Positions 6,760 to 64,000 are shown, numbered from the stretch's first letter. The stretch is DNA of 64,000 nt from Polyangiaceae bacterium (GCA_947475525.1 CANJMI010000006.1:204162-268161), one strand, 5' to 3'. Made by a program: numbers and translations. Notes: generated by a model not told the origin, from the sequence alone.

Positions 6760-6919
6760 GACGCGGCGCGTCGGCGCTCCTTAGGTAGAGCCCCATCGGC
6801 CCGTCTTCGGCCTGACACCGCCCGACGGCGAAGCGTCAGGCGCGTGGCGCTCGCGAGGCTCCAAGTCCCCGATCTCTGGTCGCCCCAATGCGGCACGCAC
6901 CTTGCCAGAGTGTACCACC

Positions 6920-7471: not shown

Positions 7472-7477
7472 GAGTCG

Positions 7478-47843: not shown

Positions 47844-49568
47844 TCACATCTTCTCTGGAGCCTCGATGCCGAGCAAGCCGAGCCCACGCGCAAGCACGGT
47901 CGCCGTAACGGCCGATAGCGCGAGCCTGGAGCGGCGCTCCTCGGGTGTGGCAGCCTTGAGCACCGGACAGTTCTGGTAGAAGGCCGAGAACGCGGTCGCC
48001 AGTTCGTAGAGGTAGCCACACAGACGGTGCGGAGCGAGCGACGCCGCAACGTCGCTGACGACGGTCGGATATGCGAGCAGCGCGAGCGCGAGCGCACGCT
48101 CTTGGGGAGCAATTATTTGGACCGCACTCGGGTCCACTTTTTCGTTCGCCTTGCGTAAAATCGAGCAAATTCTCGCGTGGGCGTACTGAAGATACGGGCC
48201 GGTGTTTCCCTCGAACGCGAGCATGCGTGCCCAATCGAACACGTAGTCTTTGACGCGATCGCTCGACAGGTCGGCGTATTTTATCGCACCGATCCCAATC
48301 GCTCGCCCAATTGCAGCGCGCTCGTCCGGCGCGAGCTCGGGATTCTTCTCCGCCACGACAGCGGTCGCTCGCAGGACGCCCTCTTCGAGCAGCTCGATGA
48401 GCCGCACGTTGTCGCCCGCCCGCGTTCGGAGGACCTTCCCATCCGACCCGAGCACCGAACCGAAGGCGACGTGCTCGGCACGCGCAGGCGGAGTGAGCCA
48501 GCCGGCGTGGATAGCCGCATCACGGATCATCGCGAGGTGCTGCGTTTGCGGCGCACCGACAACATAGAGGATGCGCGTAGCCGCGAGCGTCTGCAGCCGA
48601 TAGCGAATCGCTGCAAGATCCGTGGTCGCGTAGCCGTACCCGCCATCCTGTTTCTGCGCGATAAGAGGGAGCGGCGTGTCATCGCGGCCGGTGTAGCCAG
48701 GAACAAAGACGCATTTAGCGCCGTCGTTCTCGACGCACTGGCCCTTCGCCTCGAGCTCGGCAATCACCTCCGCGAGCATCGGATTGAAGAGGCTCTCGCC
48801 CGCGATGTCTTCATCTTGCAGCGTCACGCCGAGCAGCCGATAGAGCGCATTGAAGTGAACCCGCGAGGCTGAGACGAGCTGTCGCCACAACACGAGCGTC
48901 GCCTCGTCCCCGCCTTGCAAGAGAACGACCCTCCCGCGTGCGCGATCGGCAAAGGCGGGCTCGGCGTCGAACTTTGCTCGAGCAGCCTGATAGAACACGT
49001 TCAGATCGCGAATCGAGTGAGCATCGGCTTCGTTTCCCCCGTCGAGGAGGTGCTCTATCAGCATGCCGAATGGCGTGCCCCAGTCGCCAAGATGATTCTG
49101 ACGAATCACGGTGTGCCCGACAGCCTCTATCACCCGTGCGAGCGCATCCCCGATCACGGACGAACGCAGGTGCCCGACATGCATTTCCTTGGCGACGTTC
49201 GGCGAGGAGTAGTCGATGACGACGCGCTCCACGAGTGCCGCCGGTGCAAGGCCCGCGGTGCCGCCCGCTGAGACTCGCGCCACCTCGTCCGACAACAGCG
49301 CCGAGGTGAGCCGGATGTTGATGAAGCCTGGCCCCGCGAGTTCGGTGCTCTCGACAACGCCTTCAGAATCGAGATGCATCACGATCGCCGTCGCGACGTC
49401 GCGCGGGGCACGCTTCAGCACTTTCGCAAGCCCGAGAGCCGCGTTGGCCTGAAAGTCGGCGTGACTCGATGGGCGGATCGCGGGATCGACGCTCGCGTAC
49501 TCGGGACCGAAAGCGGAAACGATGGCGGCGCGAAAACGCTCGCCAAGAAGGACTGCGGGGTCGGACAT
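47844..49568 (-). CDS. argS: arginine--tRNA ligase
   Basis: HIGH motif SPNVAKEMHVGHLRSSVIGDAL. Class I aaRS fold. Length 574 aa. Confidence 0.95.
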   Translation of the reverse strand: MSDPAVLLGERFRAAIVSAFGPEYASVDPAIRPSSHADFQANAALGLAKVLKRAPRDVATAIVMHLDSEGVVESTELAGPGFINIRLTSALLSDEVARVSAGGTAGLAPAALVERVVIDYSSPNVAKEMHVGHLRSSVIGDALARVIEAVGHTVIRQNHLGDWGTPFGMLIEHLLDGGNEADAHSIRDLNVFYQAARAKFDAEPAFADRARGRVVLLQGGDEATLVLWRQLVSASRVHFNALYRLLGVTLQDEDIAGESLFNPMLAEVIAELEAKGQCVENDGAKCVFVPGYTGRDDTPLPLIAQKQDGGYGYATTDLAAIRYRLQTLAATRILYVVGAPQTQHLAMIRDAAIHAGWLTPPARAEHVAFGSVLGSDGKVLRTRAGDNVRLIELLEEGVLRATAVVAEKNPELAPDERAAIGRAIGIGAIKYADLSSDRVKDYVFDWARMLAFEGNTGPYLQYAHARICSILRKANEKVDPSAVQIIAPQERALALALLAYPTVVSDVAASLAPHRLCGYLYELATAFSAFYQNCPVLKAATPEERRSRLALSAVTATVLARGLGLLGIEAPEKM

Positions 49569-49649
49569 CGCGCGGAGCCTACACCAATCGCGCGTGCGTC
49601 GATTTGGCGCCGAACCTCACGCGGGAAGGTTTTATGGCGGCGCGGACGG

Positions 49650-52600
49650 TCAAATCGCGGGGGGCTTTCGCGGCGGAGGACGCCGGCCCTTCTCGAGCAA
49701 GGAGCGCACGGCACTCAACGCAAGCTCACTCTCCTCGCTACGCGACGCGGCGGCCTGCGCGAGCGGCAAGAGCGCTTGCTCGACCAGGCGGTTCTGCTCA
49801 CGAATGAGGTCCGCGATCTCGCGCGGCATCGCCGCATGAACGGCGACGGGGGCCTGACCGACAGCCTCGAGCGCGGCCTCGATGCGCAAAAGGTACGGGG
49901 TGAGCCACCCCTCCGCCCCTGCGAGCGAGCGCGCACGATGAAGCCGTGGAGCATCGCCACCATCCTCGTCGGCCGAAGGCTCCGCCTCGGGCGGAGGCGC
50001 CATCGTCGGCCGCTTCAGCATGACTTCGCGGACCGCACGAACGTCGAGACGCAAGCCGTCGATCGCCTCCTCAATCCCGCGCTCTCCGCCCTGTTGTACG
50101 ACATCACGGAGAGAATTCACGGCAGCCACGAGCTCCGAGCGATTGTCGTCACCGAGCTCCGCGCGAATCAACGCAAGCTCCGTCGCGACCGCCGTTGTGC
50201 GGTCCTGATCGAGCACGGCGCGAATCGCTTGAAGATCCGCTCCGACGCCTGCGATGGTCCCCGACAGACGCGCCACCGGGTCGTCGGCCGCGCCGCCCAT
50301 TCGCTTGTGGCGTACGTACTCGCGCTTGATCTCTTGCCACCGTGACGTCTCGGCCGTCGAAGCACGCCCGCGCAGCTCCCCGAGCTTGAGCAGGTTCGCT
50401 TCCGCACCCGTCGTCAACGTCTGCGCCTCCGAGGTGTAGTGCGACGTGACGAGCTGCTCGATCTCATCATCCGTCATCGCCGAGACGACCTTCTCGGCGA
50501 GCTTGTTCATGTTGCGGTAGCTCCCCTGAAGCTTGAACGGCGGCTCATTTCGGAAGCGGTCGTCTTGTGCCGCGGACGCGATGTACTGCAAATTAACGAG
50601 TAAAAGCGAACGCTGAACCCGTCCGAGGTGTTTGAAGACCGCCGTGATCTCCGCGAGCTCCGCCGCCGAGTAGCCATGCCGGAGATCCGTCGACGCGATA
50701 GGCTCGCCGCAAGACAGGCGGATCAGCTTCTCGACGTCGCCCGTGTCGCGCGTCGCGAGAGGCTGAAGCGCCGAGTTCGAGGTCAGCGCATTCTCGAGGT
50801 AGCTCGACGCGAAGACGTCTTCCTTGCCCGAGAGCACGTCACCCAAGTTGTAGGTGTCCGCGCGATTCGCGAGCATGTCCGGAATTTTGAAGGCCTCGCC
50901 GCTCTCCGTGTACGGATTGCCGGCCATCACCACGCAGAACTTCCGCCCGCGGAAATCATAGGTGCGCGTCCGCCCCCGCCACACGCCTTCGACCCGCCGC
51001 TGCGCGTCGCACAGGCTGATGAACTTCTGCAAAAACTCCGGATTCGTGTGCTGGATGTCGTCGAGGTAGAGCATCACGTTGTTGCCCATCTCGAACGCGA
51101 GATTGACCTTCTCGACCTCCTGCCGCGCGGTCGCGTTCGGTGCCTCCGCCGGATCGATCGAGACGACGCCGTGCCCGAGTGCCGGGCCGTTGACCTTGAC
51201 GAACACGAGGCCAAGGCGGCTCGCTACGTACTCCATCAGCGTCGTCTTGCCGTAGCCCGGCGGCGAGACGAGCAAGAGCAGGCCCATCAAGTCGGTGCGT
51301 TTGCCATCGCCCGCGGCACCGATCTGCTTGGCGAGGTTGTCCCCGACGAGCGGGAGGTAGACGTCATTGATCAGGCGGTTGCGAACGAACGCGCTCATCA
51401 CTTGTGGCCGGTACTCCGCGAGGCGCAACGCGGTGCGCTCGCGGTCGATGAGTTCCGCCCGAAGCTTGCGGTACCCGCGGTACGCTGGCAGCTCGTCACG
51501 CAGGTAGTGCCCGACACGAGCGAGGACCTCGTCTATGCCGATGCGCATGGCCCCCCCTACGACGCGTGGATGCTGGCCGATGAGCCCGACAACCTCGCCT
51601 TCGCACAGCGCCGCAGAAGCCACCCGCGAGAGCCCCGGCGAGCAGAGCATCACCGCGGCCTCGACCGCGACCCGACGCCGCGTCTCACGCGCCGGATCGG
51701 CCGCGATGAACGCGTCAACCCAAGCCACCGCCAGACCGAATCGCTCGCGCACGTGGCCGTCGAGAGCACGCATGTCCTCATCGAACGCGCTCCGCGTACC
51801 TTGCAACTCAAGCTGACGCACGAGCCCATCCCGCAAGGACTCCGACTCGGCACTGACCGTGAAGAATGACTCGCCGGTCAGCTCCTCGATGAGGTAGCTC
51901 CCCGCCTCGACCGCCGCGGGCACGAGCACCTCGAGGCCGTGCTTCGCAGCGAACGCACCCAACACCGGGGCCGCCTCAGCCGCGAGGGCGGTCAGCGCGT
52001 CACCGAGACCGAGGGCACTGCGCAAGCGGCCAAGACTCTTGGCCTGGAGACTCCATGCGCGCTTCGTCTCGCTGTCCTCGAGGGCCCCCCAGAAGAGTTG
52101 TCCGAGGGCGCGCGCTTTCGGTGAGAAACGCAGCAGCCCCGCCGAGTCATTCAGGATGAGGAGTCTCTCGAGGATCTTCGCCGCGTCCTGATCATGGACC
52201 CCGCGATCGTAGCCTTCGTCGTGACGCTCCGCCGCGAACGCGCCCACGACGGCATCGAGTTTGCCTGCCCGCTGTGCCTCTCGTAGCGCCGCAAGCGACG
52301 CCCCCTCTTGCCCGCGAACGGCCGCCGTGAAAACCAAAAACGCGAGGAACTCTGAGCGGTAAATCGAAGGCGTCTCGCTTGGAAGGCTCTGGTCCCAGAA
52401 GCGCCGCGTCGCCTCGAACGCCGCATCGGCGACCGGCTCGTAGTAGTCGGTTCCAGTCAGGTGAAACGCGAGCGCCGTACCCGGCTGCCCGCCCGCCGAG
52501 GTCCCATCGGACTTCGGCACCATCGTAAGCTCGAGCGGCTGCGTGTTGACGGTGAACCGGTGGCGTCCAAGCTTGATGAACTCGCCGTCCCCTTCGTAGA

Positions 52601-55196
52601 GGTCGAGCTTGTCCCGCAGGCCACGGAGAGCTTCCTGACGCGCGGCCTTCAACTTGGAGAGGACAGCCTCCGATTTCACGCTATCGCCGAGGGCTTGAAG
52701 TTCCGCGGCGAGCTGCCGTAACTTCAGCACCATCGCGTCGGCGGCGAAGTACGCGTTGAGATCATCGACGGTCTTCTGGCTGCGACCACGCCTCGCTATC
52801 CCGTCCAAGATGCGCTCGGCCGCCGTCGCCAAGCTCGCGACGCGGCGCGCCTTCTCATCGAGAAGTTGCTGCTTTTTCGCACCAAACGCCTCGTAGATCT
52901 CATCGCGTTTTCCAGCGAGTTCCGCGGAGAGTTCCTCGATGTCGGAGAAACGTCCTTCGAGTTCCTCGAGCTGAACAAGCAACCGCGAGAGTTGCTCGTC
53001 GCACTTTGCCGGACTGTCCGCGAGACCAATGGCGCTCGACACCGCTTGTCCAAGCACGGCCACTTGGACGACGACCTCGGCTCGCCCCTCCGCGCTCGCG
53101 AGCTCTTTGCGGCGGCCCTCGACGATCGCGCGGGTGCGGTTCAGCTGCCCGAAGACGGCGCTCAGTCCCTCGAGGATCTTGGTGCGCTGAGTCGCATCTT
53201 CGATCGGAAGATTGGAGACGACCTCGCCGAGCAACGCGAGCCCCTCAGCCACGAGAGCGAGTTTCTCTTTGTGCGGGCGAACATCGGAAGCCTTCACGAT
53301 CGCCGGCATCGCTCGTGCGAGCGCGTCGAGATCGACCGTCAGCGGTGCGAGCGCCTCGCCGCGTGAAAGGAAGAAGACGCACGCTTTGCTGAGCTCATCG
53401 AAACTACCGGTAACGCGCGTCTCGAGCTCGGCCACTTTCGCCAGATCCATCGAGCGGAGCTCTCGAAGCCCGATCAGATGGCCGCGCAACTTGCGTAGAT
53501 TCGCGAGCCCCTCGAGGAACGGATCGACCTTGCGCCAATGCTCGGGCCGCAGCTCGCGACCGACCACCGCGAACTTTTCCTCGGCGTCGGCGAGCGCCCG
53601 TTCAGCCTCTCGTCGGAACGCGACGACTTTCTCGAACTCATCGATGATGGTTTCGGTCGTGGCGCGTAGCTGGGCGACGACCGCCTTCAGGTTGAACGCC
53701 TCCTCGCGCTCGAGCCAGTAGAAGGCGTCCACCATTCGGTTCGCCCCCGCGATCAAGTCCTCGAAAGTCTGGCGCGTCGGCTGAGCGAGACGTGCGAGCC
53801 GGCACAGGCTGAGCGCATCGCTGATGCCGCGTACGAGCTCCGCATTGCCGACCTTCGCGAGGAACGAGCCATCGGTCGGTGCCTCCGCGGCAAACGTGAC
53901 GCTCGTGAACGGCGTCTGCCAGATTTGCATCGGGTGAACACGCGTCGGCTCTGATTCGTCGCGAAACACGACGAGTCGACCGTCGTCAAAGAGGCTGTAG
54001 CCGCCGCAACGGATCGGCGTCGCGACCTCTTTGCGGATCAAATTGTAAGGAAAGAGCGCGTAGGTCCCGCGGCGCTGCTCGTAGAAGAGGAAGAGAACAT
54101 CCTCACCGTTGGGCGAAGCGAGCTTGCGGTGGAACTCGAGGTCGCCATGGTCGCCGTCGAACAGCTTGTGGTCCCCACTCTCGAGGTACACGCCTCCCGG
54201 AAACACGAGACCGTGGTCTTCGGGGAGCGCGACGCACGATTGCGCGATGGCATCGATTCGAACCGCCGCCCGCGTCTTCGCGTTGAAGACGAAATGGCGT
54301 TTTTTCTCCTCGCGAAATGGCTGGATCTCGAGCACGACAAGGTGCCCGAACTCAGCGAAGCGAATGTTCGCATCGGACAGCGCTTGGTTGCGATCGTCCA
54401 CCGGCTCGGTGAGCACGGTGAGACCCTCCTTCGAGTTGTCCTCGACGCTGAGCCGCAGGCGGCCGCCGATGCAGCTGACGAACACCTTGCCCGCAATGTC
54501 CACGAACCGACCGTCGACCTGGTCGTCGGCCGCAGGAGCGATCCATTCGAAGTCGTGTTGGCGCGGCGATTGGTACTCGCGCTCACCCCGGTCATCGGTG
54601 TAGCGGACAGCGCCGTTCGGTTCGATGGACCAGCGAAATACCTTGGTTTCGCGCCACGAGGCGCCGACTTGGAAGATCGCAAAGAGCCGGGTATCGGTCG
54701 AGACCAGCTGCAAGAGCTGGGCGTCGCGCACGTACTTGTAGAGCGCCGTGAAATCCTTGACGAACTGCGGATCCTGGAGAAACCCACCGACATCCTCAAA
54801 GCCGACCGCGCTGCAATCGTACCCACCCTCACGCACGTCGAAGCGATGAAGGGCGAAGACGTCGGCGATCTTCGTCTCGCTCTTCAGCCCGATGAACACA
54901 TTGAAGCCGACGAGCAAACGCCCGCCGACCTCGACGATGTCGACCGGCAAGCAATTGTGCTCCGTGCGCACCCGCTCGGTCGCGATGACGGCGAGCTCCT
55001 GCCCACCGAAGGTCTCCTTGCGACGCCCATTCAGGGCATCGGCACGCCTCCCGAGTTCGCTCCCATGTTCGAGGAGCCTCCCTCGGATGACATCGTAATT
55101 CCCGCCGTCGAGCGTGGTCGCGCTGCTCGACACTTCGGCGCCACTGGCCGCTTGCTCATTCGCCATCGGAGACCTCCCGGCAGCCGCCCGGAACAC
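49650..55196 (-). CDS. very large (1848 aa) AAA+ ATPase-domain protein; probably the family that databases label 'DNA repair ATPase' (DUF3686-like, conserved LDD). Co-transcribed downstream of flotillin/YqiJ.
   Basis: Single high-GC3 ORF. Beta-rich N-terminal ~500 aa, a long helical/coiled-coil middle, then the AAA domain (Walker A LLLLVSPPGYGKTTLMEYV, Walker B VMLYLDDIQHTN, arginine finger region GNPYTESGEAFKIPDMLANRADTY), and an acidic/Pro C-terminal tail. Lies 20 bp after the flotillin stop. Confidence 0.85.
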   Translation of the reverse strand: MFRAAAGRSPMANEQAASGAEVSSSATTLDGGNYDVIRGRLLEHGSELGRRADALNGRRKETFGGQELAVIATERVRTEHNCLPVDIVEVGGRLLVGFNVFIGLKSETKIADVFALHRFDVREGGYDCSAVGFEDVGGFLQDPQFVKDFTALYKYVRDAQLLQLVSTDTRLFAIFQVGASWRETKVFRWSIEPNGAVRYTDDRGEREYQSPRQHDFEWIAPAADDQVDGRFVDIAGKVFVSCIGGRLRLSVEDNSKEGLTVLTEPVDDRNQALSDANIRFAEFGHLVVLEIQPFREEKKRHFVFNAKTRAAVRIDAIAQSCVALPEDHGLVFPGGVYLESGDHKLFDGDHGDLEFHRKLASPNGEDVLFLFYEQRRGTYALFPYNLIRKEVATPIRCGGYSLFDDGRLVVFRDESEPTRVHPMQIWQTPFTSVTFAAEAPTDGSFLAKVGNAELVRGISDALSLCRLARLAQPTRQTFEDLIAGANRMVDAFYWLEREEAFNLKAVVAQLRATTETIIDEFEKVVAFRREAERALADAEEKFAVVGRELRPEHWRKVDPFLEGLANLRKLRGHLIGLRELRSMDLAKVAELETRVTGSFDELSKACVFFLSRGEALAPLTVDLDALARAMPAIVKASDVRPHKEKLALVAEGLALLGEVVSNLPIEDATQRTKILEGLSAVFGQLNRTRAIVEGRRKELASAEGRAEVVVQVAVLGQAVSSAIGLADSPAKCDEQLSRLLVQLEELEGRFSDIEELSAELAGKRDEIYEAFGAKKQQLLDEKARRVASLATAAERILDGIARRGRSQKTVDDLNAYFAADAMVLKLRQLAAELQALGDSVKSEAVLSKLKAARQEALRGLRDKLDLYEGDGEFIKLGRHRFTVNTQPLELTMVPKSDGTSAGGQPGTALAFHLTGTDYYEPVADAAFEATRRFWDQSLPSETPSIYRSEFLAFLVFTAAVRGQEGASLAALREAQRAGKLDAVVGAFAAERHDEGYDRGVHDQDAAKILERLLILNDSAGLLRFSPKARALGQLFWGALEDSETKRAWSLQAKSLGRLRSALGLGDALTALAAEAAPVLGAFAAKHGLEVLVPAAVEAGSYLIEELTGESFFTVSAESESLRDGLVRQLELQGTRSAFDEDMRALDGHVRERFGLAVAWVDAFIAADPARETRRRVAVEAAVMLCSPGLSRVASAALCEGEVVGLIGQHPRVVGGAMRIGIDEVLARVGHYLRDELPAYRGYRKLRAELIDRERTALRLAEYRPQVMSAFVRNRLINDVYLPLVGDNLAKQIGAAGDGKRTDLMGLLLLVSPPGYGKTTLMEYVASRLGLVFVKVNGPALGHGVVSIDPAEAPNATARQEVEKVNLAFEMGNNVMLYLDDIQHTNPEFLQKFISLCDAQRRVEGVWRGRTRTYDFRGRKFCVVMAGNPYTESGEAFKIPDMLANRADTYNLGDVLSGKEDVFASSYLENALTSNSALQPLATRDTGDVEKLIRLSCGEPIASTDLRHGYSAAELAEITAVFKHLGRVQRSLLLVNLQYIASAAQDDRFRNEPPFKLQGSYRNMNKLAEKVVSAMTDDEIEQLVTSHYTSEAQTLTTGAEANLLKLGELRGRASTAETSRWQEIKREYVRHKRMGGAADDPVARLSGTIAGVGADLQAIRAVLDQDRTTAVATELALIRAELGDDNRSELVAAVNSLRDVVQQGGERGIEEAIDGLRLDVRAVREVMLKRPTMAPPPEAEPSADEDGGDAPRLHRARSLAGAEGWLTPYLLRIEAALEAVGQAPVAVHAAMPREIADLIREQNRLVEQALLPLAQAAASRSEESELALSAVRSLLEKGRRPPPRKPPAI

Positions 55197-55215
55197 CGGG
55201 CGGAAGGTTCAACAA

Positions 55216-57315
55216 TCAGGGAGCCTTCGGACCGCCCTTGCTCGACTGAGGAGCACGCGGAGTCGAGGCGGCTGGACCCATCAGTCGCTTCAGCTCATCG
55301 CCGAGTTTTCCATCGTCACCGATGTGGTCCGCGAGCAGGGCCTGCAGCGTCTTGGAGTTCTGGACCGCGCCGTCGATCGACGAGCCGACACCGACAGCCT
55401 TGACGAAGCGATCGAAGAAGGCGCCGTCGCCACCGACGATGTTGATGCTGGCCTTTTCGAAAGCCTTCGAGAGAATCAAAGCCTGCTGGCCTGCAACCGC
55501 GATGCGGGTCTCAAGCTCCTGCATCGCGATGTCCTTCTGCGTCTGGAGTCGCAGCCGGAACTCTTCATGCTCGCGGCTGTCCCCTTCGAGGCCTTGCATC
55601 GCCTCGGTCTTCTGCTTCAGCCCCTCGGCCTCCGCGAACATGCGCGCCTTGATCGCCTCGGCATCGGCGTGCCTGCCGGCCACCTCGGCGAGCAACTTCT
55701 CGCGCACGGCCGTCGCCTCGGCACGACCTAGCTTCTCGACCGCAACCGACTCCGCCTCCTTGACCTGGACCGAAGCCAGACCGCGCTGCTGCAAGCCGGC
55801 GGCCTCGGCGAATTCCTTGCGCTTGATGTTCTCCGCGTCGACGGTGCCTTCGCGCTCGCGCAGCGTGACCTCGGCGTCGCGGACGCGCACCTTGGCAAGA
55901 CCTTGTTTCTCGATCGCCGCCGCGTCGGCTTCCTTCACGCGGACCTCGGCGAGGCCCGTGGCTGCCTGCTCCGCCTGCACGCCCTCGGCGAGCCTCATCT
56001 TGGCGCGAGCATCGCGATCGGCGGCTTCGAGCTCCGCGTCCGCGAGCAACATGCGCTGACGCGCCCGGTGCTTTGCGACCTCCTCGTCAGCCTCCGCTTT
56101 GCGGACCTCCTTGACGAGCACTTCCTGAGCCGCGCCTTCGGCATGGATGACCTTCGCGTCTTTTTCGCGTTTGGCCGCTGCGAGGGTCCGAATATCCTTG
56201 ATGGCTTCCTCTTCGGTCGCGACCGTCTTCTCGACGGAAATGCGATCGCGCACGACGTCCGCGATCTTCTTCTTCTTAATCTCGAGCTCTTCTTGCCGCT
56301 CGATGTCGCGAAGCTGAACCTCCTTGTTTCGGCCGATGTCCTCGAGCTCTTTGGCCTTCGTGACACGGACTTGTTCTACGGCGAGCTCGCGCAGGCGCGC
56401 TTGTTCGGCCACCATCACCGCGCGCTGGCGATTTTGCTCGGCAACCTGGCCCTCTTCGTTGGCTTTTTCGAGGGTCTTCTTGGTCTTCAGCTGTTCGTCG
56501 ATTTGGGTGCGACGCGCATCTTCGCTCTCGCGGGACTGCGCCATCGTGATCTCTTTGTTGCGCTTGGCCTCGGCGTCGGCGCGTTGCTGATCGTAGCGAA
56601 ACACGGCCTCATCGGACGTGAGGTTTTGCTTGCCGATCTCCATGCGCTCGCGCTGCTTCAGCTCGTTGGTTTCGATGTTGCGCTGGGTCGTGATCGACGT
56701 GATCTTTCGAATGCCGTCGGCATCGAGGATGTTCTCGGGATCGAGGAGCTCGAGGGGAGTCTGCTCGACGAAATCGATCGCCGCGTCTTCGAGAACGTAG
56801 CCGTTTAGATCTTTGCCGATCATCCCAATGATGTCGTCGCGGAAGCGCTCGCGCTGCGTGTAGAGATCCTCGAAATCGAGTCCTTTACCTACGCTTTTCA
56901 GCGCTTCGGAGAATTTCGCGGCGAAGAGAACGTCGAGGGTGTTCTGGTCGCTCGCGCGGACGCAGCCGAGCGACTGAGCCACTCGGAGAACGTCCTCGAC
57001 GGTCTTGTTCACACGGACGAAGAAGGTAACTTTGATGTCCGCGCGAATGTTGTCGCGACAGATCAGCCCCTCTTTGCCGCGGCGGTCGATCTCGATCGTC
57101 TTGACGGAGATGTCCATCACCTCGGAGCGATTGATGATCGGCAGGACGACGGCACCGTTGAAGGTGACCTTCTGTCCGGTCGTGGAATTGATGATCAAGG
57201 CCCTGCCCTGCTCCACCATTCGATAGAAGCGCGCCAGCATCACAAAGACGCCAATCACGAAGACGACCAGTAGCCCCAAGACGATCAACCAGAATTCAAG
57301 CATCGGACCCTCCAA
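55216..57315 (-). CDS. flotillin-like SPFH/band-7 protein (YqiK-like) with an extended E/A/K/R-rich coiled-coil
   Basis: N-terminal TM helix, SPFH domain (ALIINSTTGQKVTFNGAVVLPIINRSEVMDISVKTIEID...), then ~400 aa of EA-rich coiled-coil. Confidence 0.9.
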   Translation of the reverse strand: MEGPMLEFWLIVLGLLVVFVIGVFVMLARFYRMVEQGRALIINSTTGQKVTFNGAVVLPIINRSEVMDISVKTIEIDRRGKEGLICRDNIRADIKVTFFVRVNKTVEDVLRVAQSLGCVRASDQNTLDVLFAAKFSEALKSVGKGLDFEDLYTQRERFRDDIIGMIGKDLNGYVLEDAAIDFVEQTPLELLDPENILDADGIRKITSITTQRNIETNELKQRERMEIGKQNLTSDEAVFRYDQQRADAEAKRNKEITMAQSRESEDARRTQIDEQLKTKKTLEKANEEGQVAEQNRQRAVMVAEQARLRELAVEQVRVTKAKELEDIGRNKEVQLRDIERQEELEIKKKKIADVVRDRISVEKTVATEEEAIKDIRTLAAAKREKDAKVIHAEGAAQEVLVKEVRKAEADEEVAKHRARQRMLLADAELEAADRDARAKMRLAEGVQAEQAATGLAEVRVKEADAAAIEKQGLAKVRVRDAEVTLREREGTVDAENIKRKEFAEAAGLQQRGLASVQVKEAESVAVEKLGRAEATAVREKLLAEVAGRHADAEAIKARMFAEAEGLKQKTEAMQGLEGDSREHEEFRLRLQTQKDIAMQELETRIAVAGQQALILSKAFEKASINIVGGDGAFFDRFVKAVGVGSSIDGAVQNSKTLQALLADHIGDDGKLGDELKRLMGPAASTPRAPQSSKGGPKAP

Positions 57316-57318
57316 CCG

Positions 57319-58173
57319 TTAGCTGTTCGAGCGGGTCGAGTCGTCTCGCCCCGTTCCCTCGTGCCCCAAAAGTTCGTCGTAGGGCTCCACCAGGTAGGCC
57401 CCACGCGCTTCGTCGTAATCGATGACGATCGCGGAATCTCCGCGCTTCAGACGTCCGCTCGTTGCGGCCCCCGCAGCTGAGCCGTCAGCTACCGCCACGC
57501 GCAGCCGAGTCGTATCGATTCTCACGTCGATGACGAGCTCCGCACCTTCGTCTTGGAGGGTCGCCTGCCCAAAGCCTTCGTCTACGCGACCGCTGCGGAT
57601 CTCACACACCGCGCCGACCAGCTCGTGGCGCTTGCGCCCCTCGGACGTCTTGAAGAGCCCTTCGAGTGGGCGCGTCGCGAGCGAGGTCATCGGCACGGCG
57701 GCAACGAGCGAGCCCAAGAAAAGCAGCGCACCGAAGAGACCGCTCGGCATCACCGTGAGCGCGAGCGGGCCGAGCAGACGCATCCCGCAGAACGTTGCGA
57801 TCCAGCCGAACAGCGCAAAGAAACTCAGCGTCACGGTCAGTGGCACGCGCCGCAGATTGAAGAACGCGGCGGCAGAGCCAGCCTCGTCAATCCCCGGAGC
57901 GTCGGCTGCATGACCCGCCGTCGCATGACCCGCCGCCGCGTGCCCGTCGAGCGCACTCGCAGCCGCCTCGCCTTTCGCCGCGGCCGCGTCGAGTAGGCCG
58001 CCGGCGACCTCGCCTTTCGCCAGCGCCGCGTCGAGAAGGCCCCCGTGGTCGCCTCCACCATCGAGGTCGACCGCGCCCGCGATCACCAGCAACCAATACG
58101 CGACGATGAGCACCAGCACGCCGGAATAAATCACGGTCGGAAAGGCCAATAGTGCGCTCGTCAACTCCCCCAT
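57319..58173 (-). CDS. YqiJ/NfeD-like membrane protein (OB-fold C-terminus); partner of flotillin
   Basis: Several TM helices. C-terminal beta-rich segment LVGAVCEIRSGRV...GSAAGAATSGRLKRGDSAIVIDYDEARGAYLVEP matches the NfeD short-form pattern. Lies 4 bp upstream of flotillin. Confidence 0.75.
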   Translation of the reverse strand: MGELTSALLAFPTVIYSGVLVLIVAYWLLVIAGAVDLDGGGDHGGLLDAALAKGEVAGGLLDAAAAKGEAAASALDGHAAAGHATAGHAADAPGIDEAGSAAAFFNLRRVPLTVTLSFFALFGWIATFCGMRLLGPLALTVMPSGLFGALLFLGSLVAAVPMTSLATRPLEGLFKTSEGRKRHELVGAVCEIRSGRVDEGFGQATLQDEGAELVIDVRIDTTRLRVAVADGSAAGAATSGRLKRGDSAIVIDYDEARGAYLVEPYDELLGHEGTGRDDSTRSNS

Positions 58174-58246
58174 TCGCGTGGCGCAGCGTAGGCTCGAACG
58201 GTGAGGTCCACAAGCGAGGAGTGCTCGTCAGGGAGTGCGACCGGCG

Positions 58247-58768
58247 TCACGCCTCGGAGTCGCCAGGGCCGTCTTCGCGAGGCGCGAGCACCCCGGCCGA
58301 TGCGCTCCCCAAACGAAGCGCGCGCAGCTCTTGCAGAACCGCATCGAGACGCTCGACGACCGCATCGTTGGTCGCGACCGCGGGGACTTGAGCCTCGCAC
58401 GGTGGTCTGAGCGCGGACGCCGCGAGCGACGGCCCAAGGGCATGCACGACCGCCGCTATCATCTGCCCAGCCTGCGTCCGCGGATGGATCTCGTGGTAGC
58501 CGACGCTCAGGCTCGTGGAGATGTAGACGAGCGCATCGGCGTAGGTTGTCACCCGCGGATTTTCGTCGTGCTCCGCTTGGTAGAAAAGCCAGGCCGCGCC
58601 GGCGGTGAAGCGAAAGAGCGCGTCGATCGGATCTTTTTCAACCTCGCTTCGAAGCGTGGACTTCAAGCCCTCGAGGCTCAGGTCTTCGCCCGTCGCGGCA
58701 AACAGCACCGCCGCGTTGAGCGCGAGCGCCGCCAGTCCTTGTTTGCGTGGCTTCTCGGTCGAGCTCAT
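58247..58768 (-). CDS. small pore-loop (2TM K+-channel-like, Ion_trans_2-type) protein with a degenerate selectivity filter (SVGYHE instead of TVGYGD)
   Basis: TTYADALVYISTSLSVGYHEIHPRTQAGQMIAAVVHALG parallels the K-channel pore helix, filter and inner helix. High GC3. The start ATG overlaps the stop of the upstream PBP gene (ATGA). Confidence 0.6.
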   Translation of the reverse strand: MSSTEKPRKQGLAALALNAAVLFAATGEDLSLEGLKSTLRSEVEKDPIDALFRFTAGAAWLFYQAEHDENPRVTTYADALVYISTSLSVGYHEIHPRTQAGQMIAAVVHALGPSLAASALRPPCEAQVPAVATNDAVVERLDAVLQELRALRLGSASAGVLAPREDGPGDSEA

Positions 58769-60306
58769 TGGGGCGGCACCACCATCACCGTATCGAAGTC
58801 GGTGAAGGCTTTGTTCGGCACCCACACCTCGATCGGCCCCGGTGCTTCTCCGCGCGCGGGGTCAAAATCGAGTGGGCCCGATATTCCGTAGATATCGATG
58901 TTTTTTCCGCCCGTGAGCGCCGCGGCGGCCTTCGTAAAATCCGTCTGACCGACGTTCACCGGACTGCCGCTCGAGAGACGCGTCAACCCTGCCGCAACAT
59001 CGAAGCCGTCGAAGCCAGCCACCGCGTGTTTCGCCGCCGTCAGCCCGTAGAGCAAACCGTATGCGCCGACGTACGCGGCATCGTAGCTGTGCGACACGAA
59101 GCCAAAGCCGGTGACGGTCACGCCATAGAGGCTGTTCATTTGCTGCACGAATTTTGCGTAGGCGGCCGCGGCGTTCGGGTCGAAAGCGGCGGGGCCGGTA
59201 CCGACCGCAGCACGAATGAGAGCCTGAACCTCCTTCGGCTGTTTCGGGTCGAGGATCACCGTGCTCCGCGAGCCATCGGTGAGAAAGAGTTTCGGCGTCG
59301 TGAACGCGTTCTTCGCGGCTTCGTTTAAGAACGTCAACGTGGTCGCGGCGTCGGACGCGACGACCAGGAGTGCGGCGGCGTTCTTTGCCTTCGCATCGAC
59401 GGCGGCCTTTGCAAGATCGGTCGCGAGGTTCGAGTCAACGCGGAACGGCAGCGAGGTCATCGTGTTGCCGGCGGCCGTCCAGCCTTCACGAAACGCGGTC
59501 TCGATGCCGCTGCCGTAGGCGTCGTTTTGATAGACGACCGTCACCGAGGTCACCATCGACTTCGCGATTTCTCCGACAAGCACGGCCGCTTGAAGCGTGT
59601 CGCGCGGGCACGTGCGCCAAAACAAGCCGGTCATCCGCCCGTCGAAGACGACCGGGTCATCGGTGAGCCCCGCCGCCGTTGCCGAAGGTGAGATAAGCGT
59701 CGTCGGGAGGGCCTTCACTTTGAGCACGCCGATGGCCGCAGCCACGTTGGCGCTCGAGGCGGGACCGAGAATCAGCGGCACACCGAGCGAGCCTGCCAAG
59801 TACTCCGTGAGCCGCGCCGTCTCGACGCTGTCGGTCGTGGTCGCGGTCGCGTCGTTGCGACACACGAGCAGCGCGACATCGAGGCCATCGATGCCGCCCG
59901 CCACGTTGATCTCGTCGACCGCGAGCCGCATCGCGCTCGCCCGTGCGTTCTGACTTGTGGTGTCTTTGAGCAGGGCGCCTATCAGCAGTCGATCGCCGAC
60001 GGTGCCCGGAAATTCGCCCGCGAGCGAAGGGGGTTCACTGAGGGAGCAGCGCGGCTCAGCGGCGGCAAGTGCGCAACGCTGAGCTTCACAGGTTGCCCCG
60101 TAACCGAAGGTCTTGCGGCAGTCGCTCGTCGTCTCGCACGTCGCGGGGTCGGTGCAGTAACCGTCCGCACACGCGCTGCCGGCGCCGAAGGCCACGGCGC
60201 ACGCGCCATCGGTCGCGCATCGCTCAGGCGAAAGATTGCCGAAGGAGCACCCCGTGAGGGCGAGCGCGACGATGGCGGCAAGCGAGGAGCGAGACACGGT
60301 GTGCAT
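58765..60306 (-). CDS. type I periplasmic binding protein (LIVBP/ANF-receptor-like, Peripla_BP_6) lipoprotein with a Cys-rich N-terminal module
   Basis: Lipobox ALALTGCS, 14 Cys in the first ~90 aa, then a PBP fold (LLIGALLKDTTSQNARASAMRLAVDEINVAGGIDG...LILGPASSANVAAAIGV). No ABC permease or ATPase genes nearby. Confidence 0.75.
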   Translation of the reverse strand: MHTVSRSSLAAIVALALTGCSFGNLSPERCATDGACAVAFGAGSACADGYCTDPATCETTSDCRKTFGYGATCEAQRCALAAAEPRCSLSEPPSLAGEFPGTVGDRLLIGALLKDTTSQNARASAMRLAVDEINVAGGIDGLDVALLVCRNDATATTTDSVETARLTEYLAGSLGVPLILGPASSANVAAAIGVLKVKALPTTLISPSATAAGLTDDPVVFDGRMTGLFWRTCPRDTLQAAVLVGEIAKSMVTSVTVVYQNDAYGSGIETAFREGWTAAGNTMTSLPFRVDSNLATDLAKAAVDAKAKNAAALLVVASDAATTLTFLNEAAKNAFTTPKLFLTDGSRSTVILDPKQPKEVQALIRAAVGTGPAAFDPNAAAAYAKFVQQMNSLYGVTVTGFGFVSHSYDAAYVGAYGLLYGLTAAKHAVAGFDGFDVAAGLTRLSSGSPVNVGQTDFTKAAAALTGGKNIDIYGISGPLDFDPARGEAPGPIEVWVPNKAFTDFDTVMVVPPQ

Positions 60307-60312
60307 GCTACC

Positions 60313-61941
60313 TCACTTCGCCTTTGGACTCGCGTCGACGTGCAGGCCGAGCTGCGCGCGCTCGAGCATCAGCCCCTCGATGGCGGCGCGGTCGGCAAGC
60401 GTCGGGCGCCCCCATTCGGGCTCGTAGCCGAACACCTCGGTGGCCGACCGCACGACGAAACCGGGATCGACGATGGCAAGTCGATCGAGCGGCACGAGCG
60501 ACGGATGAGACACACCGCATGCACCGCCGAGAGAGAGAAGTTCCTTCCGCAGCGTGGCAAGATAGTTCGCTAGCCGAGCCGACTTGTCGGTGGGATCGAG
60601 GCCTCGCATCAACCATGCGCTCTGGGTCGCGACCCCGCTCGGGCAGTTGCCCGTGTGGCACTCCTGAGCCTGGATGCACCCAAGCGCGAGCATCGCCTCC
60701 CGCGCGACGTTGAGCATGTCGCAACCCATCGCGAGCGCGAGCAATCCGACCCCGGGAAAACCGAGCTTGCCCGAGCCGATGATGACAACCTTCTCCTGGA
60801 CGCCGCGAGCCGCCAACGCTCGATAAACCGATGCGAGCCCAAGCTTGAAAGGCAACGCGACGTGGTCCGCGAAGACCAGCGGGGCTGCGCCTGTGCCACC
60901 TTCTCCGCCATCGATGGTGATGAAGTCCGGGGCGCGACCCGTCGTGTCGATAAGCCGCGCGAGGTCGTCCCAAAACGAAAGCTCACCGACGGCGCTCTTG
61001 ATGCCGACGGGCAGACCCGTGGCGTCGGCCAGCCGCTCGATGAAGTCGAGCATCGAGTCGGTGTCCTTGAAGGCTCGGTGATGCGCGGGACTGATGCAGT
61101 CTTGACCGAGCGGGATCAGGCGAATCTTTGCAATTTCGGGCGTCACTTTGGCGGCGGGAAGCACGCCACCGAGGCCGGGCTTCGCGCCTTGACTCAATTT
61201 GAGTTCGATCGCTCGAACGGGAGCCGAGGCCACCGCCTCCAGGAAGCGCTCCATGGAAAAGCCGCCGCGCTCGTCGCGGCAACCGAAGTAGCCGGTGCCG
61301 ATCTGCCAGACGAGGTCACCGCCATGGCGATGGTGCTCCGAGATCCCTCCTTCGCCCGTGTTCTGCATCGCGCCGGCGAGCTTCACGCCGCGATTGAGTG
61401 CCTGGATGGCGTTCGGGCTCAGTGAGCCGAAGCTCATCGCTGAGGTGTTGACGATCGACGAAGGGCGAAAGGCTTTCTTCCGACCGCGATGAGCACCGAG
61501 CACTTTGGCAGCCGGACACGCGAAGGAGGCATCGAAGCCCGGCTCGCCGGCATGCGGCAAGTGGAGTGGAAAAGTCGAATGCCGAACGATGACGTAGCCC
61601 GGTGATGTCTCCAAATCGTTGTCTGTCCCGAAGCCGAAGTAGTTGTTCTCCTTCTTTGCGGACGCGTAAATCCAGCGGCGCTGGTCGCGTGAGAATGGGC
61701 GCTCCTCGTCATTTTTCGCGACGAAATACTGGCGAACCGGCGGACCGAGCAGCTCGAGCCAGTAGCGTCCGTGCCCGACGAGCGGAAAATTGCGGAGGAT
61801 CGCGTGCTTCTTCTGCGTGAGATCGCGCACGACGACGAGCACGAGGAAACTTGCGATGACGATGGCGACCCAGCCGGAGGTTGGCACCCGCGGAAGCCTA
61901 CCTGCGACCGTAACGACTCGGTGAGCAAAGTCGCCATCCAT
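60313..61941 (-). CDS. FMN-binding glutamate-synthase-family protein (GltS domain-2-like) with N-terminal TM anchor
   Basis: The central GltS_FMN motifs ([14 protein letters not shown]...[26 protein letters not shown]...[15 protein letters not shown]...[13 protein letters not shown]) are all present. Confidence 0.85.
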
Positions 61942-62118
61942 GCGTTATGCCGCGATGGTGAGGGAGCGCGGTTCGGCGACGAAGCCGGGCAATCGCCTCC
62001 GCATCGCGTTCGAAGCGCCCAAGAGCGTGCGCGGCAGGGCGCAGCCGCTGCACGACAGCTACGAGGACTATCGCTCTCGGTAAAACGTCACGCTGGCCGT
62101 GGTAACCTTCGCGGCTTG

Positions 62119-62819
62119 ATGAGTACGCATGATGACGCGCCGCCGCCGCTCTCGGTGCCGAGTTTTCCGGTGCCCACGGGTCGCAACGACTCGCCGCGGA
62201 TTCTTATCCTTTACGGCTCGCTTCGCGAACGCTCCTACAGCCGGCTGCTCGCCGAGGAGGCGGCGCGGATCCTCGAGGGGCTCTCGTGCGAGGTGCGTTT
62301 CTTTCATCCCCACGACCTCCCGATCAAAGCCCCTGGTCACGATGGCCATCCCGAAGTTCAGCGTTTGCGCGAGCTTTCCCTTTGGTCGGACGGGCAAGTG
62401 TGGTCCTGCCCCGAGATGCATGGAGCGATCACCGGCGTATTCAAGAATCAGCTCGATTGGATCCCCCTCGAGCTCGGTGCGGTTCGGCCTACCCAGGGGC
62501 GCACGCTGGCGGTGATGCAGGTGTGTGGTGGCTTATAATTGTTCAATGTCGTCAACACGTTGCGACTGCTTTTGGGCGTTGGATGCGGATGCTCGCTATT
62601 CCGAATCAATCATCGGTCCCGAAACCCTACGAACAGTTTCGCGAGAACGGCCGCATGAAAGATTCCGCGTACCGTGACCGCCTCGTGGACGTGATGGAAG
62701 AACTCTACAAGTTCACCTGGCTGACCCGAGACATTCGAGAGTTTCTCGTCGATCGGTACAGCGAACGGCGCGAGGCGACGGCCAAGGCCCTCGTGAGCGC
62801 GGCCCAATTGCAATGGTGA
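62119..62819 (+). pseudogene. arsH: arsH (NADPH-dependent FMN reductase ArsH) disrupted by an in-frame TAA (62536-62538) and a frameshift in a G/T run near 62575-62579
   Basis: The first frame ([11 protein letters not shown]...[27 protein letters not shown]...AVMQVCGGL*) matches the ArsH N-terminal half. The ArsH C-terminal half ([53 protein letters not shown]...) continues in another frame. Where ArsH has GGSQSFNAVN, this sequence reads GGL*LFNVVN. Confidence 0.75.
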
Positions 62820-62884
62820 ACTGTTATTGAGGTTTTGTTGGCACCTTTGCCGAGATCTGGAGACTGCGTCGGCTTTCACAGGAA

Positions 62885-63051
62885 AACCTTGACCACTTGA
62901 CTGATGACTTAACTCACGCTTGACTTACAACCGTGTCCTACGAACCCCAATTCACGATCAGCCCGCACCTGCTTTCGCTGGTGGAGGAGTCCGCCAGAAG
63001 CCATGCGGGAGCGTGGCGCGCGGACAAAAAAACGCGACAAATACCTATAAT
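62885..63051 (+). promoter_or_regulatory. AT-rich intergenic region with clustered TTGAC(C/T) direct repeats and a sigma70-like -35/-10 (GGACAA-18 bp-TATAAT at 63022/63046) upstream of hsdM
   Basis: TTGACC/TTGACT/TGACTT/TTGACT at 62889-62926. TATAAT at 63046-63051. Local GC drops sharply relative to the window. Confidence 0.3.
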
Positions 63052-63168
63052 TCATTGCAAATGTGGATTATTGGGCGTGTTGTTCGCGAGCGAAAAAGAG
63101 TAACGTGGCGCGCTGTGAGCACTCGATGCCGCCGACATGACGAAAACACTCTGGAACCGTAGGTAGAT

Positions 63169-64000
63169 ATGTTTGAGCAAACCTTCAAAAACATCGATGA
63201 CGTCCTCTGGAAAGACGCCGGCTGCACCAGCGAGCTGGATTACACCGAGCAATCGTCGTGGCTGCTGTTTCTGAAATACCTCGACGCGCTGGAATCAGAC
63301 AAAGCCACCGAAGCCGCTTTGAACGGCAAGCCCTACGAGCACATTCTTGCCAAAGCTTATCGCTGGCAATCGTGGGCCGCGCCTCGCATCGGTGATGGCA
63401 AGAACGGCAAGATCGACCACAACACCGCCCAGACGGGCGATGACCTGATTCAGTTCGTCAACGCCAAGCTCTTTCCCTATTTGCACGGCTTCAAGGCCAA
63501 GGCCACCGGCCCGAACACCATCGAATACAAGATCGGCGAAATCTTCGGTGAGATCAAAAACCGCATCCAGAGCGGCTACAACCTGCGCGAGATCATCGAC
63601 CACATCGACGAGCTCCGCTTCGCGTCCCAGACCGAGAAGCACGAACTCTCGCACCTCTACGAAGCCAAGATCAAAAACATGGGCAACGCCGGGCGCAACG
63701 GCGGCGAGTATTACACCCCGCGCCCGCTCATCCGCGCCATCGTCGCCGTTACCGCGCCCCGGCTCGGCGAGACCATCTGCGACCCCGCCGTCGGATCCGC
63801 CGGTTTTCTCTGCGAATCCTTCGATTACCTCCGCGCCCAGAACCCCAAGCGCACCACCGCGCAGGACCGCGCCCTGCAAGAGCGCACCTTCTACGGGAAG
63901 GAAAAGAAGTCCCTCGCCTACGTCATCGCGATCATGAACATGATCCTGCACGGCATCGAAGCGCCCAACATCATCCACACCAACACGCTCGCCGAGAACC
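63169..64000 (+). CDS. hsdM: type I restriction-modification system methyltransferase subunit HsdM (N-terminal 277 aa; continues beyond the window)
   Basis: MFEQTFKNIDDVLWKDAGCTSELDYTEQSSWLLFLKYLD is the classic HsdM N-terminus. GGEYYTPRPLIRAIV and DPAVGSAGFL are SAM-binding motifs. AGGTAG Shine-Dalgarno sequence. Noticeably lower GC than the flanking DNA. Missing from the ORF track because it has no stop within the window. Confidence 0.9.
   Translation, partial: MFEQTFKNIDDVLWKDAGCTSELDYTEQSSWLLFLKYLDALESDKATEAALNGKPYEHILAKAYRWQSWAAPRIGDGKNGKIDHNTAQTGDDLIQFVNAKLFPYLHGFKAKATGPNTIEYKIGEIFGEIKNRIQSGYNLREIIDHIDELRFASQTEKHELSHLYEAKIKNMGNAGRNGGEYYTPRPLIRAIVAVTAPRLGETICDPAVGSAGFLCESFDYLRAQNPKRTTAQDRALQERTFYGKEKKSLAYVIAIMNMILHGIEAPNIIHTNTLAEN

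Follow-up and report, generated by a model that had tools for sequence, protein, structure and literature searches.

Animal SPFH proteins modulate ion channels of the DEG/ENaC, ASIC, Piezo and TRPC6 types. In bacteria, the NfeD-SPFH2 pair, as in YqiJ-YqiK and YuaF-YuaG, is an established conserved operon, and in the paper describing it channels are unmentioned (0 occurrences) (PMC2636767). An ion-transporter gene beside a flotillin gene has been described for the flotillin-associated rhodopsin, a divergent paralog with altered key residues that is encoded 16 nt from the flotillin gene and seems to have lost retinal (PMC10308929). Our literature search found no paper on a channel-fold gene fixed to NfeD-flotillin operons, nor on the filter motif SVGYA/S/D/H. 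Here we describe such a gene in a window of 64,000 nucleotides from a Polyangiaceae bacterium (GCA_947475525.1 CANJMI010000006.1:204162-268161; coordinates are counted from the first letter of this stretch), where a 173-residue pore-loop protein is encoded between a periplasmic binding protein (PBP) and a YqiJ/NfeD-like protein that is followed by a flotillin. We propose, with slightly more confidence than doubt, that the 173-residue protein is a subunit of a minimal KcsA/Kcv-type cation pore and a partner or client of the NfeD-flotillin module. As judged from sequence comparison, it would belong to a previously undescribed and largely myxobacterial pore family, the partners of which are the YqiJ/NfeD-like protein and flotillin rather than the binding protein.

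The pore gene and its parts are arranged as follows.

58247..58768, minus strand: 173-residue pore-loop protein (Ion_trans_2, KCNQ2/KcsA alignment, AlphaFold2, Foldseek)
58571..58630, minus strand: M1 outer helix, residues 47-66 (AlphaFold2 helix 47-66)
58490..58543, minus strand: pore helix, residues 76-87, and filter TSLSVGYHE, residues 85-93 (phmmer alignment, family signature)
58409..58477, minus strand: M2 inner helix, residues 98-120 (invariant columns; AlphaFold2 helix 99-120)
58292..58381, minus strand: C-terminal amphipathic helix VVERLDAVLQELRALRL with a 3-4 heptad pattern (conservation; AlphaFold2 helix 130-159)

Three kinds of comparison agree on the fold of this protein. First, it scores 23.6 bits against the Pfam profile Ion_trans_2 (PF07885), for which the cut-off is 22.5 (E=4.9e-5); its homologs score 23-30 bits, and most of those in databases are precomputed as PF07885. 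Second, a phmmer search of the PDB returned the pores of KCNQ2, KCNQ5 and KcsA, and residues 58-116 align with the KCNQ2 pore such that SVGYHEIHPRT stands opposite TIGYGDKYPQT; before the filter, a gap marks the one residue by which the window protein is shorter. Third, the AlphaFold2 monomer model, built with 20 homologs, has helices at residues 12-24, 32-45, 47-66, 76-87, 99-120 and 130-159, with a predicted local distance difference test (pLDDT) of 81-96 by block over residues 31-120. Every top match of this model listed by Foldseek in the PDB is a K-channel-type pore, KcsA superposing with a template-modelling (TM) score of ~0.7 and a root-mean-square deviation of 2.1-2.6 Å over ~80 residues. 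The chain thus reads as an N-terminal hydrophobic helix, an amphipathic helix, M1, pore helix, filter, a short M2, a linker and a C-terminal heptad helix. A reading of this stretch made earlier from the sequence alone (hereafter the sequence-only reading) had matched the small protein to the pore helix, filter and M2 of K channels; both the profile score, which passes its threshold, and the helix-pore helix-helix order of the KcsA-like model bear this out, and the protein is, on the predicted structure, a genuine K-channel-type pore-loop protein of M1-P-M2 fold.

The transmembrane helices and the tail of the protein have features of their own. The 17-residue Kyte-Doolittle maxima are 0.87 for M1 and 1.66 for M2, compared with 2.76 and 2.47 in KcsA. 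In the homolog alignment, G101 and G112-P113 of M2 are invariant, and an ungapped extension of the phmmer alignment would make G112 the equivalent of the KcsA hinge G99. M2 stops 8 residues past this presumed hinge, so a bundle-crossing gate is unlikely if G112 is indeed the hinge. The residues R140, L141, D142, L145, L148 and R149 of the C-terminal helix are nearly invariant, and few parts of the family are as well conserved as this helix; it is probably cytoplasmic and serves tetramerisation or docking, and some minimal members of the family, of ~90-100 residues, lack it. Histidines stand at positions 92, 95 and 109 of the pore (window 58442-58495, minus strand). The same ungapped extension puts His95 at the position of KcsA Y82; His92 and His95 occur together in the clade of loci that have a PBP gene beside the pore, and His109, in M2, is common to this clade and its nearest PBP-less relatives, P0009 and P0011. 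Up to three histidines per subunit near the pore raise the possibility of pH or metal sensitivity.

The most distinctive trait of the protein is its filter. The non-canonical SVGYHE pointed out in the sequence-only reading is indeed present, His92 occupying the place of the second glycine of GYG, and the canonical signature T-x-G-Y/F-G with both glycines is absent (S-V-G-Y-H). Lacking this GYG signature, the protein is not to be classed among the K+-selective channels. The further assertion that GYH should abolish K+ selectivity was overstated, since K+ transporters of the KtrB/TrkH class reportedly have one filter glycine per P-loop. With the inner sites S-V-G-Y intact and the outer site remodelled, reduced K+ selectivity, or a shortened filter like those of NaK, CNG or KtrB/TrkH proteins, would be expected by analogy, and complete loss of K+ conduction need not follow.

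The altered filter is shared by a whole family. A profile search over 1.84 billion cluster representatives (50%-identity clusters) returned 1674 matches at E<=1e-3, 225 at E<=1e-10 and 89 at E<=1e-30, the matches listed all being of 83-249 residues. Being conserved in >200 sequence clusters, the pore gene is not a chance open reading frame (ORF). The family is largely confined to Myxococcota, and its matches in genomes are nearly all metagenome-assembled genomes (MAGs) of Polyangiaceae, Myxococcales and Nannocystaceae. In the 154 sequences with a recognisable filter, the motif is T(148)-[C70/S63]-[L101]-S(147)-V(151)-G(154)-Y(151)-x-[D80/N41]-[I/V]-F-[P/A]-x-T(152). The residue after GY is A in 62, S in 34, D in 20, H in 19, G in 9, T in 6 and C in 4 of these; that is, the second glycine is retained in 9/154 (~6%), as GYGD/E, and replaced in 145/154. 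Since the motif is conserved across the family and few members have GYG, loss of the second glycine appears, as judged from these sequences, to be a stable family character under constraint and not a decay of the window gene.

These counts also bear on the possibility, rather unlikely in our view, that the family is a degenerate, non-conducting channel fold whose part would be structural, nucleating flotillin-NfeD assemblies or acting as their adaptor. Such a role would suit the absence of the second glycine in ~94% of the family, the shortened pre-filter segment and the weakly hydrophobic transmembrane helices, and changes of GYG to GYS/A cause loss of function in animal channels. It would also have a precedent in the flotillin-associated rhodopsins, which apparently do without retinal (PMC10308929). 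However, the residues S, V, G and Y of the filter (147, 151, 154 and 151 of 154) are kept as strictly as in true channels, and the post-filter acidic or amide residue, the P/A-x-T motif and the hinge G-P are conserved too, a pattern that would be difficult to account for if there were no ion pathway. The nine members with a full GYGD/E and the reported K+ conduction of KtrB/TrkH-type proteins with one glycine per loop likewise speak against a non-conducting fold.

The second body of evidence is the gene neighbourhood of the family. Loci of pore homologs were taken from GTDB species representatives (35) and from metagenomes (80), and the six-frame ORFs of all loci were screened with jackhmmer profiles seeded by the six proteins of the window cluster. 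Because most loci are MAG or metagenome contigs, and the short ones, when classified, are biased in favour of a partner, frequencies were taken from the 43 informative contigs (28 GTDB, 15 metagenome) that extend at least 2.2 kb upstream and at least 1.5 kb downstream of the pore. NfeD-like/SPFH genes adjoin the pore in 31/43 of them (72%), namely in 19/28 from GTDB and 12/15 from metagenomes. Over the 35 GTDB loci, flotillin was found by tblastn in 26, and an SPFH and/or NfeD-like ORF beside the pore by the jackhmmer screen in 24. For a ~10-Mb genome that carries a handful of SPFH genes, we put the probability of a pore gene adjoining one of them by chance well below 1%. The genes come in two recurrent orders, namely pore-NfeD-SPFH, at times with a DUF3686-AAA+ gene after it (order A), and NfeD-SPFH-pore (order B). 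Among non-redundant loci, 51 have order B, 13 order A without PBP, 5 order A with PBP and 16 neither partner, while 32 are too short to be assigned. The junctions are tight in both orders: in order B, flotillin and pore overlap by 4-14 bp or are separated by 1-4 bp in 11/13 GTDB loci, and in order A, pore and NfeD genes commonly overlap by 4 bp.

An improbable alternative, on these figures, is a stand-alone small K+ channel whose adjacency to flotillin and PBP would be incidental operon packing. NCBI and JGI annotate the homologs as potassium channel family proteins, and ~28% of the informative loci, including that of a cultured Sorangium, are orphan. Against this stand the NfeD-like/SPFH neighbours in 72% of the informative loci, in two gene orders and across filter subtypes, and the start/stop overlaps with either NfeD or flotillin; such adjacency is far above chance, and a single inherited arrangement does not explain it. 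Nor is the filter canonical. A search for an alternative conserved partner in loci without flotillin found none: in L009, L013, L017 and L027, the ORFs of 245-328 residues that lie downstream of the pore are rich in Arg, Pro and Ser and arise from reading the wrong frame, and the ORF downstream in L036 encodes an unrelated secreted protein. The Sorangium homolog (L125 6001-6501, Sorangium sp. So ce834 chromosome) has the filter STCVSGGYAD and lies between a DUF5690 gene and a methyltransferase gene, with no flotillin, NfeD or PBP neighbour, so that this cultured strain does not offer itself as a model of the flotillin-linked form.

Two unusual sequences of the family were set apart. In L034 (8966-10234), an ORF runs from a flotillin coiled-coil tail straight into pore helix, filter and M2; it was rejected as a flotillin-pore fusion, M1 and half of the SPFH domain being missing, and a deletion, pseudogene or MAG misassembly is probable. 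P0013, an ENA contig product of 258 residues, joins the N-terminus of the exonuclease VII large subunit to the C-terminal half of the window pore (99% identity), and resembles an assembly chimera in a public metagenome.

In the window itself, ORF reading places six genes head-to-tail and tightly packed on the minus strand (49650-61941). Besides the pore gene, the cluster and its flank hold the following.

60313..61941, minus strand: GltS-like protein binding flavin mononucleotide (FMN), 542 residues, N-terminal hydrophobic segment (Pfam Glu_synthase PF01645, 3.9e-79)
58765..60306, minus strand: lipoprotein type I PBP, 513 residues, LIVBP/ANF-receptor fold, orphan (Pfam, AlphaFold2, Foldseek)
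60046..60219, minus strand: Cys-rich N-terminal region of the PBP, residues 30-87 (translation, alignment)
58765..58768, minus strand: ATGA stop/start overlap of PBP and pore genes (sequence read)
57319..58173, minus strand: YqiJ/NfeD-like membrane protein, 284 residues, C-terminal OB-fold (Pfam matches of orthologs, YuaF profile match)
55216..57315, minus strand: flotillin/YqiK-like SPFH protein, 699 residues, with N-terminal transmembrane segment, SPFH domain and long coiled coil (Band_7)
49650..55196, minus strand: giant DUF3686-DUF7902-AAA+ protein, 1848 residues, last gene of the cluster (Pfam)
47844-49568: arginyl-tRNA synthetase, after the cluster (flank annotation)

The GltS-like gene is the first of the cluster and is preceded by a divergent FMN reductase gene. 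The spacing is 6 bp from the GltS-like to the PBP gene, 73 bp (58174-58246) from the pore to the YqiJ-like gene, 3 bp from there to the flotillin gene and 19 bp on to the DUF3686-AAA+ gene. At the junction of PBP stop and pore start (...CCCCAATGAGC...), CAA-TGA and ATG-AGC have ATGA in common. Both ORFs, of the PBP and of the 173-residue protein, lie on the minus strand, at the coordinates given in the sequence-only reading. The ATG start gives 173 residues and agrees with the N-termini of homologs; for this reason an alternative GTG start at 58825 (192 residues) is less likely. Rfam at gathering thresholds gave no match over 49000-64000. Promoter and terminator scans stayed at or below shuffle expectation and say nothing on operon boundaries. 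NCBIfam gave nothing for the PBP, the YqiJ-like protein or the flotillin, and a sub-threshold match for the pore.

The two genes after the pore form an NfeD-SPFH2 pair. The N-terminal 260 residues of the flotillin match Band_7 (PF01145, 1.9e-9, residues 34-176), and the translation has the N-terminal hydrophobic segment and the E/A/K-rich tail of the SPFH protein of such operons; the full-length protein has no Pfam or NCBIfam match at E<=1. It seems that the score of the full-length protein is depressed by its long E/A/K/R-rich coiled coil, a pitfall for automated annotation. The NfeD-type partner is encoded immediately upstream of the SPFH protein. The window YqiJ-like protein has no Pfam match alone; among its orthologs, YqiJ_N is found in 10/14 aligned (best 3.2e-12), single members match NfeD and YqiJ_OB, and the family profile matches the NfeD domain of B. 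subtilis YuaF (2k14, E=3e-4). In the YqiJ-like partners of other loci, the loop after the first transmembrane helix holds His/Asp or Asp/Ala repeats (DHDVDHDHDV, DADADADAD; examples are L010 7119-7916, L015 2364-3239 and L029 7288-8022), which suggests metal or cation binding, and in the window clade the same loop is Ala/Gly/Asp-rich with few histidines.

The giant last protein matches DUF3686 (1.2e-177), DUF7902 (8e-23) and AAA and AAA_5 (~2e-6) in Pfam, and a DUF3686-AAA+ gene follows flotillin in at least eight loci (the window, L002, L004, L014, L024, L038, L049 and L055). Pfam labels DUF3686 'ATPase involved in DNA repair'; our literature search found no paper mentioning DUF3686, and the flotillin-linked AAA+ machine appears uncharacterised. 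Its presence could suggest a membrane-depolarising stress or defence effector, with the DUF3686-AAA+ protein and flotillin as damage sensors that would open the pore and so bring down the membrane potential. This we regard as very improbable indeed. It is true that flotillin and the 1848-residue AAA+ protein are encoded co-linearly in the window and in no fewer than 7 further loci, and that a pore without obvious inner gate could be dangerous if unregulated; but PADLOC found no defence system, only trivial P-loop similarity (E ~5e-3), most pore-flotillin loci, being of order B, have no AAA+ gene, and the cluster has a housekeeping arginyl-tRNA synthetase gene in its flank and no mobile-element or phage features around it.

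The gene that overlaps the pore gene in the window encodes a PBP which, in several respects, is as the sequence-only reading described it: a type I LIVBP/ANF-like fold, a Cys-rich N-terminal module, no ABC partners and a stop codon in ATGA overlap with the pore start were all recovered. The Pfam matches are ANF_receptor (2.4e-15) and Peripla_BP_6 (4.3e-14). The AlphaFold2 model, from a 46-sequence alignment, has a pLDDT of 92.2, and its best solved folds by Foldseek are LivJ (4gnr) and LivK (3td9), with a TM-score of 0.85, followed by ligand-binding domains of mGluR. The protein has, accordingly, the type I fold of LivJ/LivK-type ABC substrate-binding proteins, and it lacks their partner genes: its homologs number 111, mostly from Polyangia, and no cognate permease or ATPase gene was found in any homologous contig examined, nor in the window cluster and its flanks, where LivHMGF-type importer genes are absent from the cluster and ~12 kb of flank and the sole ABC protein nearby is of the soluble ABC-F type (44954-46591). 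After the lipobox (LTG-C20) come two C-x5-C-x9-C-x4-C modules (residues 30-78) and a conserved Cys87. Cys30/36/46/51/63/87 are nearly invariant in the same alignment, the region is modelled at pLDDT >90, and at least one module occurs in 93/111 homologs. No Pfam or NCBIfam model matches the tandem module, apparently a Polyangia-specific disulfide-rich stalk on orphan PBPs. The serine at +2 of the lipoprotein may, as far as its sequence tells, direct it to the outer membrane.

The sequence-only reading had made of this PBP and the pore a split ligand-gated channel, in which the lipoprotein would bind a small ligand, dock on the outer mouth of a tetrameric pore and gate it, as in iGluR/GluR0 but with two polypeptides. 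Some observations fit this proposal. The PBP is a well-folded LivJ/mGluR-like clamshell without transporter partner, the compartments agree, the PBP being periplasmic and the filter mouth periplasm-facing, and the genes overlap by ATGA in the window and by 4 bp in the P0003 contig, where the PBP is probably adjacent to the pore. PBP and pore are adjacent in all members seen of the window's syntenic clade, i.e., L001 (pore identity 73%), L045 (74%), L038/L039 (P0006; 63%), the P0005 contig (63%) and L041 (P0007; 58%). Moreover, the His-type filter GYHE is found in 5/5 PBP-linked loci scored, and with the extra His95 and His109 it might form a clade-specific periplasmic surface for interaction or sensing.

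The wider comparison nevertheless makes the split channel decidedly improbable. A PBP gene beside the pore was found in 0/43 informative contigs (0 of GTDB, 0 of metagenome), all of which lie outside the clade, and PBP-pore adjacency is restricted to the window's syntenic clade, with pore identities of 58-99%. Within this clade the unrelated flanks, IspA and Kelch/EGF genes, are equally syntenic; the adjacency therefore carries little weight and may reflect recent common ancestry. The stop/start overlap is not conserved in relatives: L001 has a gap of 14 bp in its place, and L038 and L041 have one of ~50 bp. The two genes also occur apart. L042 reads IspA-Kelch-GltS-PBP (55% identity)-NadA, with GltS-PBP at 5309-8440 and no pore or flotillin, and in the same sample a pore (P0011, 57-59% identity) lies among unrelated neighbours on another contig, L036, which is presumably of the same organism and has no PBP. 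L040 has the GltS-like gene and the pore without PBP or flotillin. More distant PBP homologs (44% and 38% identity) stand in unrelated contexts, adjoining FG-GAP proteins, or CNNM/CorC proteins and kinases. In addition, the PBP is of type I, whereas the ligand-binding domain of iGluR is of type II and inserted in the channel polypeptide, and the serine at +2 could place the lipoprotein in the outer membrane.

What is conserved around the PBP is another gene. The GltS-like gene lies upstream of it in L038, L041, L045 and P0005 as well, and because L042 has the GltS-PBP pair without pore, and the pore occurs elsewhere without PBP, the GltS-like gene and the PBP gene appear to form a conserved unit, distinct from that of pore, NfeD and flotillin. 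It is puzzling to find an FMN enzyme of cytoplasmic type paired with a binding protein of the periplasm. For the PBP, the best reading of the gene orders is a lineage-specific neighbour of the pore. Of the suggestion that the pair is a sensor for the downstream flotillin module, the pore-flotillin link stands (31/43 contigs), and the part of the PBP is poorly supported.

Based on these findings, we propose the following working model for the pore and its module. Read by the positive-inside rule on the translations, the pore would lie in the inner membrane, by analogy as a tetramer, with its N-terminal helices and C-terminal heptad helix in the cytoplasm. The SPFH domain and coiled coil of flotillin and the OB-fold of NfeD would likewise be cytoplasmic, on the same side as the C-terminal helix of the pore, and the filter mouth alone would be exposed to the periplasm, where the PBP resides. 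The flotillin-NfeD microdomain could then assemble, stabilise or gate a marginally hydrophobic pore that has no inner gate, and the output might be a regulated cation (K+/Na+) flux within a membrane-stress or membrane-organisation function. In the window lineage, the pore-NfeD-flotillin-(DUF3686 AAA+) module would be placed downstream of the separate GltS-like and PBP unit; co-transcription of the two is likely, and direct gating of the pore by the PBP is not indicated.

Several points weigh against this model. The Ion_trans_2 score of the window protein is just ~1 bit over the threshold. M1 and M2 are marginally hydrophobic throughout the family (medians 1.41 and 1.48 vs 2.5-2.8 in KcsA), so that membrane insertion and topology are not certain. 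Replacement of the second filter glycine in animal K channels usually yields non-conducting or dominant-negative proteins. The physical contact of the pore with flotillin or NfeD is proposed from gene neighbourhood and a predicted monomer. The ~28% of informative loci without an SPFH neighbour, that of the cultured Sorangium among them, mean that the flotillin link is frequent and not obligate. Finally, the ATGA overlap of PBP and pore genes in the window suggests co-expression, and a functional link to the PBP is possible.

A more specific version is put forward tentatively, with doubt somewhat outweighing confidence: the K-channel-derived pore with remodelled filter (SVGY-A/S/D/H) may be a built-in third subunit of Myxococcota NfeD-flotillin systems, the assembly enclosing or gating the pore on its cytoplasmic face. 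Such a pore-flotillin complex might, in the window clade, receive a ligand input by way of the periplasmic PBP. If true, this would be the first genetically hard-wired prokaryotic complex of SPFH protein and ion channel, and a natural experiment on the role of the second filter glycine. In any case, many genomes have the gene of a tiny channel-fold protein firmly joined to an NfeD-flotillin operon, and three small bacterial genes would suffice to ask what bacterial flotillins and NfeD proteins do and how SPFH proteins regulate channels in animals (MEC-2, stomatin, STOML3, podocin), for which the family offers a tractable system. The >200 natural K-channel filter variants without the second glycine should also be useful for the study of selectivity and filter gating. 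For annotation, two warnings follow: the adjacent orphan PBP is not to be read as a ligand-binding subunit of a channel, and the labels 'two pore domain' and 'voltage-gated potassium channel' are wrong for this pore family.

Among known systems, the family resembles KcsA and the viral Kcv (Ion_trans_2) in the M1-pore helix-filter-M2 fold, the T-x-x-S/T-V-G-Y sequence, the post-filter acidic or amide residue, the P-x-T motif and the hinge glycine of M2; its small size is like that of Kcv and its C-terminal helix like the KcsA bundle. It differs from them in having A/S/D/H for the second glycine (~94%), a shorter pre-filter segment, an M2 that ends ~8 residues past the hinge, weakly hydrophobic transmembrane helices and the NfeD-flotillin operon setting. 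Filters with an altered outer part through which ions still pass are those of NaK and CNG channels (TVGDG, TIGET) and the x-G-x loops of KtrB/TrkH/HKT, from which it follows that conduction need not be lost with the second glycine. The relationship to these is no closer than the general pore fold, the window pore keeping the tyrosine and losing the glycine after it; and whereas KtrB/TrkH/HKT are four-repeat polypeptides, the window pore is a single small subunit that would, by analogy, form a homo-oligomer. With GluR0 and iGluR it has in common that a PBP fold and a K-channel-like pore are encoded together. In those receptors, however, the channel polypeptide itself contains a ligand-binding domain of type II (LAOBP-like), and its pore has the opposite orientation in the membrane, whereas the window PBP is of type I, a separate lipoprotein and adjacent to the pore in one narrow clade; neither an obligatory PBP coupling nor a type II domain (LAOBP/SBP_bac_3/Lig_chan) was found here.

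The setting of the pore is that of E. coli yqiJ-yqiK and B. subtilis yuaF-yuaG/floT, a YqiJ-like NfeD gene followed by an SPFH gene, with a 3-bp spacer in the window, to which a third, channel-like gene has been added before NfeD or after flotillin and which a DUF3686-AAA+ gene often joins. The combination of an SPFH scaffold with an ion-transport protein is shared with the flotillin-associated rhodopsins and with the animal SPFH-channel pairs (stomatin, MEC-2, STOML3 and podocin), those with DEG/ENaC channels included; here the partner has a K-channel fold, the hosts are Myxococcota, and the coupling is a proposed one. By analogy of gene arrangement and altered key residues, the closest precedent of this flotillin-linked pore is the flotillin-associated rhodopsin.

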